From Planctomycetota bacterium (GTDB lineage Bacteria > Planctomycetota > JAJSAM01 > JAJVHW01), in the NCBI GenBank assembly GCA_965248445.1, contig CBDFJG010000004.1, positions 128,001-192,000 on the forward strand: a DNA stretch of 64,000 nt, read 5' to 3'. How positions within the stretch are numbered: the stretch's first letter is position 1; each line of letters begins with the position of its first letter. Positions 6,950 to 59,658 of this stretch are shown one piece after another. A model generated the notes under the pieces. It saw nothing but the letters and a program-made list of their open reading frames with translations. It was not told the origin of the DNA and searched no databases. The translations under genes and the position numbers were made by a program.

Positions 6950-6981
6950 AAAACGGCCCGGAGCCGTGTGGCTCCGGGCCG
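6950..6981 (-). terminator. Rho-independent terminator downstream of the thioredoxin-like selenoprotein gene
   Basis: 12-bp perfect stem CGGCCCGGAGCC / GGCTCCGGGCCG, 4-nt loop, followed by TTTT on the minus strand. Confidence 0.8.
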
Positions 6982-7004
6982 CCGTTGCTCGCAAGCGGGA
7001 GGAG

Positions 7005-7937
7005 TTACTCGGCGGCCTCGGCCTTCTTCTCCTTGAGCAGCGCGAACAGCTCGGTGAGGCGCCCCTCGAGGTCCGTCTTCCTCAAGGCGGTCTTGAGCGA
7101 CGACAGGAGCTTGTTCGCCTTGGCGAACTCCTCGTTCCCGATCATCTCCTCGGCGTTGTCGAGTTCCTCGCCGGCCTTCTCGAGAAGCGTCGCCTTGTGG
7201 GCGTCGATCATCTCGACGATCTTGTCGCCCTTCTTGAGGAGCTTCTTCGAGTCCTTGTTGAACTGGAGCAGCGCCTTGGCGATGCCCTTGTCTTTCATGA
7301 CTTCGGCGGCCTTGATCTTCGCGTCCTTGAGGGTGCTCAGATGTTTGCGGGACAGGCCCTTGCCGTGCTTCTTCTCCAGCTCCTCACGCATCTTCGTGAC
7401 GAGCTCGATCATCTTCTTGACCGGCTGGCTACCGCCCAAGCCACGCATCTGCTTCAGCGTGTGGGGATCGACGATCGCAGTGTAGGGGATGGACTGCGTC
7501 TCGTTATAGGACGGCGCCTTGGACTTACGGAGCGCGTAGATGTCCTCGACCGTCAGCCCGGGGAACTCGACCAGGTACTTGACCGGCTCGCCGTTCTCGT
7601 CGACCGCATCGTACTGAGCGGCCTTCTTGTCCTTCGCGTCAAGGCCCTTCTTGAGTTCCTGGAGGGACATCACCTCGACGGTGTTCTCGTTGGCGAAGTC
7701 GATGTACTTGTCGTTTTGCAGCACAGAACTGTGCATGCCCCAGCAGGGGTTTCAATAGAAGCCGTGGACGTGCACCACCATGGGTACGTTCAGCATCTTG
7801 GCTTCTTCGACGGCCGCGTCCCACGACTTGGCGTAGGTGACCGACGGCTTGATCTTGTGCTTCTTTTCCTTGGCCTGCACCACGCCGCCGGTGGCGACGA
7901 GGAGCGCGGCGAGCACGAGTGTGGTGCGTCCGAGCAT
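7005..7937 (-). CDS. Exported thioredoxin-fold selenoprotein (UxxC, Sec at residue 62) with Lys-rich helical C-terminal domain, 310 aa
   Basis: ORFs 7752-7937 and 7005-7736 are in the same frame and joined by TGA-AAC-CCC-TGC-TGG-GGC (HGFY-U-NPC-WGMH). Trx-like context WDAAVEEAK...PMVVHV, cis-Pro-like SIPYT, signal peptide, AGGAG RBS, downstream hairpin. Confidence 0.85.
7718..7738 (-). promoter_or_regulatory. Putative bacterial SECIS element
   Basis: mRNA GCA-U-GCACA-GUUC-UGUGC-UGC: stem with 5' bulged U and G-initiated tetraloop, starting 14 nt after the UGA at 7752-7754. Confidence 0.7.
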
Positions 7938-8168
7938 GTTGTTCTCCTGCCGATCGCGCGGGCCGCGATCCTGACTGCTGGGTCTTCTGTCGAGTGAGTC
8001 CCGTCCCTCGCCGGGCCGCCCCCGTCATCAAGTGGGGGGGCGCTCCGATTCGTGGCTAGGACGCCTGAGGCCGGGGCAGAGTTCCCCTGGGCTCCCCGCG
8101 AGTGTACCGCACGCCCGATCCGCCCCTGAGAGGCGGTCGGCGGCCTCGGATCGGGACCGGATGCAGCC

Positions 8169-58461: not shown

Positions 58462-59658
58462 CTACTCGACTGGTTCGTTGTCGGCGGCAGGTTCGTTGTC
58501 GGCGGGGGGTTCGTTGCCGGCGGGACCGACCGGGGCGCCCATCTCCGCGAGGAGTTCGTCCACGGCCTCGTCCATCTTCTCGCCGCGCACGTTCTTGAAG
58601 CGGATCCTGCCTTCGGCGTCGATCACGTAGATCGTCGGCCAGCTCGACACGTTCCAGCGCGCAGAGATCGGACCGCGCGTTCCCTCGGGCCCGTTCCAGA
58701 AGCTTCGCCACGTGATCTTCTCTTCCTTCATCCGCGAGGCGAGCTTGTCCTTGTCCTTGTCACTGTTCAGACCGATGAGCGCGAAGGGCTTGTCAGCGAG
58801 TCTCTTCACGAGCGACCGCTCGTGCGGGTACATGGCCCGGCAGGGTCCTCACCAGTCGCCCCAGAAGTCGAGCACCACCACCTTCCCTCGGTAGTCCGAG
58901 AGTTGGAAGGCGACGCCGTCCAGGTCCTCGCCCGCGATGTCCGGCGCCTCCATGCCGATCTGCAATCGCTCGATCTCGAAGATCGTCGACGCGGCACGCT
59001 TGCCGTGTGCCGACTCCGGCGCGATCTCGGACGCACGGTTCAGATCCACGAGCGCGCCCGCAAGCGCCCCTTCGCGCGCGGCCGGGTTCTCGAACTCGCG
59101 TCGCAGGACGCCTGCACCGCGGGCATACAGCATGGCGGCGGTCACAGCGTCGTGTGCCGTGATGGACACATCCATGGCTTTCGCGACCCGCTCCTCGCCG
59201 AGTTTGTCGGCGTAGTACAGGAACGTGAACGTCAGATCCGTCCATGCTCCGCTGCCGGCATGGTCGGCGATCAGCGTGTCGAGCGCCGACTGGGAGGCCT
59301 CGATCTCGTGACGCATCGCGTACTGGACCGTGCGAACGAGGAACTTGGCGGCCTCCGGCGTACCCGCGAACTGCGCGGCGGCATCGCGGTACTTCGGCCA
59401 CATGACCTTCTCGGCCGGCGGCTTGGTCTGCTGCCGCGGGCCCGTCGAGCCCTTGGGCTGCGCGCGGCGGGACCTCGCGTACTCCGAGCGCGCGGTCTTG
59501 TACTCGGCGGCGAGCCTCTCCAGCACCGCTGCGGCGTCGGGCGCGGCCTCGACAGCCGCCCCCGGCGGCTCGGCGTCCTGCGCGCGCAGATCGCCGCTCG
59601 ACAGAGCGAGCGATGCCAGTGCGGCGATACCCGCGGCGAACACGATGCCTCTTCGCAT
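58462..59658 (-). CDS. TlpA/AhpC-like thiol-disulfide oxidoreductase selenoprotein (UxxC, Sec at residue 270), 398 aa
   Basis: ORFs 58849-59658 and 58462-58833 are in frame through TGA: [44 protein letters not shown]; signal peptide; downstream hairpin. Confidence 0.92.
58807..58824 (-). promoter_or_regulatory. Putative bacterial SECIS element
   Basis: mRNA CACGAGC-GGUC-GCUCGUG: perfect 7-bp stem with GGUC loop, starting 25 nt after the UGA at 58849-58851. Confidence 0.75.

Follow-up and report, generated by a model that had tools for sequence, protein, structure and literature searches.

A predicted exported selenoprotein family with a thioredoxin fold and a helical tail in Planctomycetota

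Introduction

Within a 64,000-nucleotide stretch of a Planctomycetota contig (hereafter the window), two open reading frames of 61 and 243 amino acids lie in a single frame, divided by one TGA. This raises the question of whether the TGA ends a short gene or is read as selenocysteine (Sec) within one longer protein, and what that protein might do. Sequence comparison indicates that this codon, TGA62, is very likely read as Sec via SelB and tRNA-Sec, with a hairpin lying 14–34 nt downstream. For the mechanism as a whole, i.e., Sec read-through yielding a periplasmic thiol/selenol-disulfide reductase that would be re-reduced by a DsbD-type protein, we estimate a probability of about 0.6.

Results and discussion

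A single gene with one in-frame TGA

The gene occupies a 310-aa frame on the minus strand (7937–7005), running from an ATG at 7937 to a TAA at 7007–7005, with its only in-frame TGA at 7754–7752. This is codon 62, in the peptide PMVVHVHGFY-U-NPCWGMHSSV, where it takes the first position of a U-N-P-C motif; the reading of the two open reading frames as one interrupted frame, made in an initial annotation from the sequence, holds in both coordinates and sequence. Standard ORF calling presents the 243-aa second half as a separate ORF (7736–7005). The whole 1201-nt stretch is present with no differences in contigs of two public runs, which derive from one sample, probably the assembly's source, and in these too positions 7752–7754 read TGA, not TGC or TGT.

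Two of the three local elements first proposed for the gene are in place, namely an AGGAG ribosome-binding site (7944–7948, minus) 6 nt 5' of the ATG and a probable cleavable signal peptide comprising residues 1–22 (7872–7937, minus; cleavage between VQA and K), which was recognized by eye and is disordered in the structural model. A hydrophobic N-terminal leader is found in the query and in 111 of the 115 homologs scored, and a hydrophobic 10-mer precedes the motif in 88/92 TGA-bearing and 23/23 Cys-bearing homologs having enough upstream sequence. The third element, a terminator, is less certain: a GC-rich, strong hairpin 3' of the stop (6950–6983, minus; -32.6 kcal/mol, z -6.3 versus shuffles) is terminator-like with only a four-T tail, and it is absent from the output of a terminator scan. 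A promoter scan of the locus returned nothing, and an Rfam search over the window gave no matches.

Sec and Cys alternate at residue 62

In a sample of 401 genomes of the phylum, 79 contain a match to the query. In a first, unbiased set built from the best 30 loci, 33 alignments extend over residue 62, with 24 showing TGA (query included) and nine TGC or TGT. This set was enlarged by 39 loci from scanning GTDB for the Cys pattern (37 of the 39 named records are Planctomycetota and two are labeled simply 'bacterium'), 57 loci from scanning metagenomes for the TGA pattern, and 40 fetched regions. A profile search of the enlarged set recovered 205 domains, which reduce to 150 distinct sites once 11 without the motif in range are set aside and duplicates are merged. 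The 122 sites above 100 bits (hereafter strong sites) comprise 99 with TGA and 23 with Cys codons (TGC/TGT), a ratio biased by the TGA- and Cys-pattern scans and drawn from kin that are not independent; below 100 bits are 27 TGA sites and one mis-registered site. As had been anticipated, homologs align across the TGA and the strong sites hold solely TGA or TGC/TGT at residue 62, never a codon for Trp or Gly. Around it, three histidines, His56 and His58 (His-x-His, 7764–7772, minus) and His69, are conserved in 97/99 TGA and 23/23 Cys sites.

Among the best 120 of 155 matches in the protein database, 56 are full-length CxxC proteins, one is an SxxS protein, and 63 start just after the motif, with the window's own 243-aa ORF being one of the latter; names, where given, are 'hypothetical protein'. 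Some full-length homologs (5/72 in alignment A3) have lost one or both motif cysteines while keeping the fold-defining residues and the signal peptide, and these sequences imply that the fold can persist in a role other than redox chemistry. No longer, fused forms were seen among 7997 candidates scored, which is weak evidence against their existence, and a plasmid collection yielded no match to the query. More distant subfamilies (loci L154–L173) display the motifs HKDx-U-xxC, HAEH-U-GAC, and HSHGST-U-GPC with the same protein size and a GGUC-type hairpin at +23, and often occur in tandem behind a gene for an exported HEAT-repeat protein.

A SECIS-like hairpin that covaries and tracks the TGA

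The hairpin GCA-U-GCACA-GUUC-UGUGC-UGC, noted initially as beginning 14 nt after the TGA, is found at 7738–7718 (minus strand) and is the minimum-free-energy structure (-9.9 kcal/mol), with a spacer of 22 and a GUUC loop at +23 to +26 (7729–7726) closed by an A-U pair. It meets the bacterial SECIS consensus given in the legend to Figure 2 of PMC13188914 (loop of 3–9 nt with G in the first two places, 16–37 nt from the UGA, stem of at least 4 bp, energy of -7.5 kcal/mol or lower), which we applied with a script of our own, distinct from bSECISearch. By itself, it does not exceed shuffled sequences in stability (z -0.8 to -1.2), and its support therefore comes from the homologs and not from its energy. 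The test is passed by 81/99 strong TGA sites, 25/27 weak TGA sites, 4/23 Cys sites, and 56/990 synonymous resamples; most of the 18 strong TGA sites that fail are genes of the second register described below that miss the energy filter.

Two alternative registers of the hairpin are observed, viz., register A, that of the query (61 sites), and register B (38 sites). Register A has a G-first tetraloop at +23, with a closing pair of C-G in 28, G-C in 20, and A-U in 6 of the 61 sites, and all of its criteria are satisfied by 51/61 sites versus 1/23 Cys sites. The Ser codon's third base, which is free to vary, tracks the first base of the codon preceding it, with CGG-TCG occurring 34 times and GGG-TCC in 16/16 instances, and other register-A sites use AGT-TCT or AGG-TCT. 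In the query, the AGT and TCT of this region are the sole AT-ending codons among 14 Ser codons, and CAA, which follows, is used for one of the eight Gln codons, in a gene with a GC3 of 0.91, which confirms the unusual codon choice remarked on earlier. Among 15 register-A sequences picked by hand, 98.7% of cells are paired and eight show two-sided changes, a level reached by 0/500 shuffles, with the caveat that three of the five pairs never vary because they lie within His and Val codons. The anticipated covariation is seen in compensatory closing pairs, and the hairpin is lost in the Cys forms. The likeness of the bulged U to that of the fdhF element holds for the query; among homologs, however, the bulged U and the lower stem vary, and it is the upper stem and the G-first loop that are conserved. 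In register B, the peptide HSAV is encoded as CAT TCT GCC GTG in 36 TGA genes and as CAC AGC GCC GTN in both Cys genes, the former codon choice producing a different stem whose CGUG(A/U/C)U loop sits at +27.

Sec machinery and other candidate selenoproteins

The machinery on which the proposed read-through depends (selA/selB/selD/selC) is present in full in the genome, which is 92% complete: it encodes selA, a full-length selB (the match spans 2–580 of 581 positions), a selD that itself carries one in-frame TGA, and a tRNA-Sec scoring 68 bits. Across the phylum, selA is found in 67/69 family-bearing genomes, which were chosen from the phylum search, versus 289/401 in the phylum sample, and the two family-bearing genomes without a selA match both have selB and tRNA-Sec above cut-off. 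The 289/401 figure is in itself high, considering how rarely this group is mentioned among users of Sec. Together with the TGA/Cys alternation and the hairpin, this gene content supports the original proposal that the TGA, at the attacking-Cys position of a thioredoxin CxxC, specifies Sec.

A crude scan of the genome returned 174 coding-like in-frame TGAs, mostly false, from which 21 were picked by eye: 14 in thioredoxin-like families, three in AhpD/CMD, one in DUF3179, two in no family, and one at what proved to be two ordinary genes and was rejected. This candidate selenoproteome, spread over all contigs, includes many thioredoxin-like proteins with signal peptides, AhpD/CMD proteins with a CxxU motif, and two proteins of no family with QIGPQ-U-PFC and DEEFC-U-TNA; these are candidates by pattern, with homologs compared for DsbD alone. 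A second candidate in the window (59658–58462, minus; TGA at 58851–58849) combines a signal peptide, a helical region, and a TlpA/ResA-like domain with FWGDW-U-GPC, has a hairpin with a GGUC loop, and matches AhpC-TSA and Redoxin above the Pfam cut-off.

Repeated exchange of Sec and Cys

A tree was computed from 44 Sec, 23 Cys, and four TGA outgroup rows, excluding metagenome rows and masking the columns that hold the motif or encode the SECIS. On it the Cys label needs eight changes, seven of them forced by starred branches; monophyly of the Cys forms is rejected (p-AU 1.5e-57), Sec rows are basal, and a larger tree agrees. Both trees are quick ones, and because of this, the lack of a mixture model in the smaller tree, and its long outgroup branches, the root is unsure. 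The most parsimonious interpretation would be repeated loss of Sec to Cys, given that the Cys rows are nested within Sec rows having one and the same SECIS. Sec-to-Cys changes are described as rare in bacteria in section 10 of PMC13188914, and the Cys-bearing genomes sampled here retain selA. The family offers a natural experiment, in which the same peptide occurs with either of two registers of the SECIS, paralogs with Sec and with Cys adjoin each other, and at least seven exchanges between Sec and Cys, read mostly as losses, have taken place.

Fold and domain architecture

The architecture first suggested, a thioredoxin fold interrupted by an insertion and followed by a Lys-rich helical C-terminal domain, is recovered in all its parts by an AlphaFold2 model made from 108 sequences with Sec modeled as Cys (mean pLDDT 93). 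The thioredoxin-fold domain spans residues ~27–192 (7362–7859, minus), with the motif at the start of a helix (63–73), so that the TGA (7752–7754, minus) would place Sec62 at the attacking position with Cys65 as the predicted resolving residue, and with an inserted short helix and β-hairpin at ~95–125. Five helices follow after residue 193, forming a C-terminal domain (residues 193–310; 7008–7361, minus) with 23 Lys among its 118 residues. Pro151 is invariant and precedes a strand (152–156) in the model; Ile150-Pro151 (7485–7490, minus) is predicted to be the cis-Pro loop, with a thioredoxin-type Ile. The best structural matches are DsbH (2ju5; Z 12.4, rmsd 3.0, 123 residues aligned), a DsbD-γ-like domain (Z 11.7), and AGR3 (Z 11.0).

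In sequence searches, the query found no match in the PDB at E 10, and profile A2 found at best a thioredoxin h (E 0.019). In this weak alignment, His56 lines up with the buried thioredoxin Asp that lies six residues before the first Cys, a replacement by which the chemistry of the site may differ. The tail on its own, modeled from the single sequence, has no Foldseek match at E 0.001, which does not imply a new fold; VIA gives Z scores of at most 9.3 over ~54 residues, within the noise for helical folds, and the last three tail helices weakly resemble a TPR-type unit. A homodimer prediction for one Cys homolog scored 0.00, which is no evidence either way.

Genomic context

The query gene has an aldo-keto reductase gene upstream and genes for a 1073-aa protein and a ceramidase-like protein downstream, none of which recurs at homologous loci. 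In the window, the region downstream holds a probable lipoprotein of ~1080 aa (6914–3648, minus) with no Pfam match and with metallophosphoesterase-like motifs discerned by eye, whose gene abuts that for a neutral-ceramidase-like protein (3647–1599, minus). Two kinds of neighbor recur elsewhere and are absent at the query locus, namely a SpoIIE-type phosphatase, at 13 loci, and an exported protein of 700 aa that belongs to no Pfam family, at 11. No redox partner emerged as a conserved neighbor, thioredoxin reductase adjoining only three of the loci examined. At 18 loci the family occurs as tandem pairs, some with Sec beside Cys. In pairs such as those at L011, L047, and L081, an HRHGFY-U subtype, always with TGA, is combined with an HSHGFY-U subtype, and such pairs often have the SpoIIE-type phosphatase before them and the exported 700-aa protein after them.

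A predicted periplasmic reductase

We propose that UGA62 is decoded as Sec by SelB and tRNA-Sec with the help of the downstream hairpin, and that the product would be exported to the periplasm by its signal peptide. There, as the fold, motif, and gene content suggest, the Sec62 selenolate would attack a substrate disulfide, Cys65 would resolve the adduct, leaving a selenenylsulfide that a DsbD-type membrane protein would reduce again, with the insertion and the helical tail possibly selecting protein partners. A reductase role is the most likely one in view of the DsbH/DsbD-γ-like fold of the model, the G-P dipeptide found between U and C in 67/99 TGA sites, the thioredoxin-type Ile, and the presence of a Sec-bearing DsbD, although the N-P that the query has in place of G-P counts against it. 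The residue before the loop Pro is typically Ile in thioredoxins, Thr in DsbC/G, and Val in DsbA, according to the available text of PMC2665069; in the family it is Ile in 74/99 TGA sites and never Thr.

The candidate electron donor is the only DsbD_TM match of the genome (G000:C1:397665-399623, minus), which has a TGA at the first position of its γ-domain CxxC; this TGA failed the SECIS test. Among 30 genomes searched with this query, 24 contain a match, 21 with TGA and three with Cys at the CxxC, and six have no match. Table 1 of PMC13188914 names the TsoB fusion and not plain DsbD. A Sec-to-Sec relay from DsbD to the query protein is plausible and, if true, would point to selenium-based transfer of electrons within the cell envelope. 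We also advance, tentatively, a broader picture in which a Sec-γ DsbD feeds at least 12 exported Sec-thioredoxins, some with chaperone-like tails, as a selenium-based periplasmic reducing network of uncultured Planctomycetota, in an organism with a haem-copper oxidase (subunit I is encoded in the genome), coupled with repeated reversion of Sec to Cys and a shift of SECIS register within a fixed peptide.

Alternative explanations

The foremost alternative, which we regard as improbable, accepts the selenoprotein but sees in it mainly a periplasmic 'chaperedoxin', whose tail would hold unfolded clients in the manner of the CnoX/YbbN TPR region and whose Sec would form protective mixed bonds with client cysteines. 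The order of a thioredoxin domain followed by a helical tail, the persistence of motif-less homologs, and the fact that, of the top Foldseek matches, only the YbbN structures 3qdn and 3qou align along almost the entire protein (E 7.4e-4, 279–305 columns) all fit this, as does the Lys-rich tail, given that CnoX is activated by chlorination of basic residues (per the available text of PMC8129009). However, superposition of YbbN on the model yields a TM-score of only 0.28–0.30 and an rmsd of 11–13 Å, there are five tail helices versus ten in CnoX, the matches of the isolated tail stay at noise level, and CnoX passes its clients to cytoplasmic GroEL, which is out of reach for an exported protein.

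Slightly less probable again is a selenoprotein in which UxxC and His56/His58/His69 form an oxidase/isomerase site or a site handling metals or small molecules, in place of a DsbD-fed reductase. The near-universal conservation of these histidines (120/122 strong sites), the His standing for the thioredoxin Asp, and the tandem pairs of distinct subtypes, which suggest a dedicated substrate, would suit such a site, but the model has neither a DsbA-type helical insertion nor a DsbC-type N-terminal dimerization domain, and the dominance of G-P and the absence of Thr before the loop Pro also speak against it.

The reading of the TGA as a true stop, whether by sequencing error, in a pseudogene, or between two genes with a restart at Met68, is effectively refuted. 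It draws on public gene calls, which split the gene, as was foreseen for gene callers at large (the 63 truncated database homologs, with the short N-terminal halves ending at the motif), and on the +6 codon, which is ATG, GTG, or TTG in 84/99 TGA sites. Yet this codon is the non-start CTG, CAG, GTC, ATC, GAG, or GCA in the other 15, and intact Cys homologs keep the same Met (21/23); moreover, both halves form one thioredoxin domain in the model, placing the break inside a domain, TGA stands at this codon in many families of the phylum, and the hairpin tracks it. Genome-wide reassignment of UGA to Trp or Gly, or its non-specific suppression, for which the in-frame TGA alone would speak, is refuted by stop-codon use and tRNA content, TGA being the main stop (1186/1920 long coding-like ORFs) and tRNA-Sec the only tRNA with a UCA anticodon in the genome, and by homologs that have Cys and never Trp or Gly.

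Comparison with known families

The reading preferred here, a Sec-dependent exported reductase, places the protein as a new family in the commonest class of bacterial selenoproteins, the UxxC thioredoxin-fold proteins, and one absent from the sources compared, viz., Pfam, NCBIfam, and the 119-family table of 2026. None of 108 members comes near any cut-off in Pfam or NCBIfam 20.0 (best E 6.2e-5 for TsoB and 4.5e-4 for Thioredoxin_7), and the query scores 15.5 of 805 bits against TsoB (NF045694), 16.8 of 27 against Thioredoxin_7, and 16.7 of 190 against DsbH (NF043050). The family likewise falls below the cut-offs of SaoT, HUIPC, VPGUxxT types 1 and 2, Trx7/PDZ, redoxin, and Thioredoxin_2. Its motif is absent from the 119 families in Table 1 of PMC13188914, although broadly defined entries there (thiol:disulfide interchange protein, thiol-disulfide isomerase-like) could accommodate it. 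BSepDB (PMC13326102), whose contents derive from families reported earlier, was compared by description; the deep-Sep families in the available text of PMC12013277 are nine others; and two split thioredoxin-like candidates in a planctomycete (PMC4807772) are known by description. Literature searches did not find the family, the motif strings giving one unrelated match. The initial impression that this is not a named selenoprotein family stands for these sources. It appears to be an uncatalogued, phylum-wide family truncated by annotation pipelines, which would mean that the selenoproteomes of Planctomycetota are undercounted.

The bacterial UxxC selenoproteins described in the available text of PMC13188914 (Trx PF00085, PF13098, cd02966, redoxin PF08534, SaoT, and HUIPC) share with the present family a UxxC that opens the active-site helix, the in-frame UGA, the hairpin with a G-first loop 16–37 nt downstream, and the existence of Cys homologs, but those in the table are without its HxHGFY-U-xPC motif, insertion, and five-helix tail. 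VPGUxxT (NF041382, NF041383), Trx7/PDZ (NF041199), and TsoB (NF045694) are thioredoxin-like selenoproteins already in the catalogues and comparable to the present family in size or domain type. Identity with VPGUxxT type 2 was considered and rejected: NF041383 passes its cut-off at other, separate loci of the same genomes (16/45 genomes), on which the profile of the present family reaches 11.9 bits at best. These VPGUxxT type 2 genes in Planctomycetota often have two in-frame TGAs; the table of PMC13188914 lists one Sec for that family. The closest structures, chlamydial DsbH (2ju5) and the DsbD-γ-like domains (3f9u, 1vrs), are likewise exported thioredoxin folds, with DsbH suggested to keep the periplasm reducing (PMC5193440, available text), but at 15–19% identity to the query they have Cys and no helical tail, in contrast to its predicted Sec and C-terminal domain. 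Finally, CnoX/YbbN (3qou, 3qdn) shares with the query the succession of a thioredoxin and a helical domain, and with the family the occurrence of motif-less members; it is, however, a cytoplasmic protein that works with GroEL and has a ten-helix TPR domain made of two five-helix subdomains (PMC8129009, available text), whereas the query combines a signal peptide and a predicted Sec with five helices.
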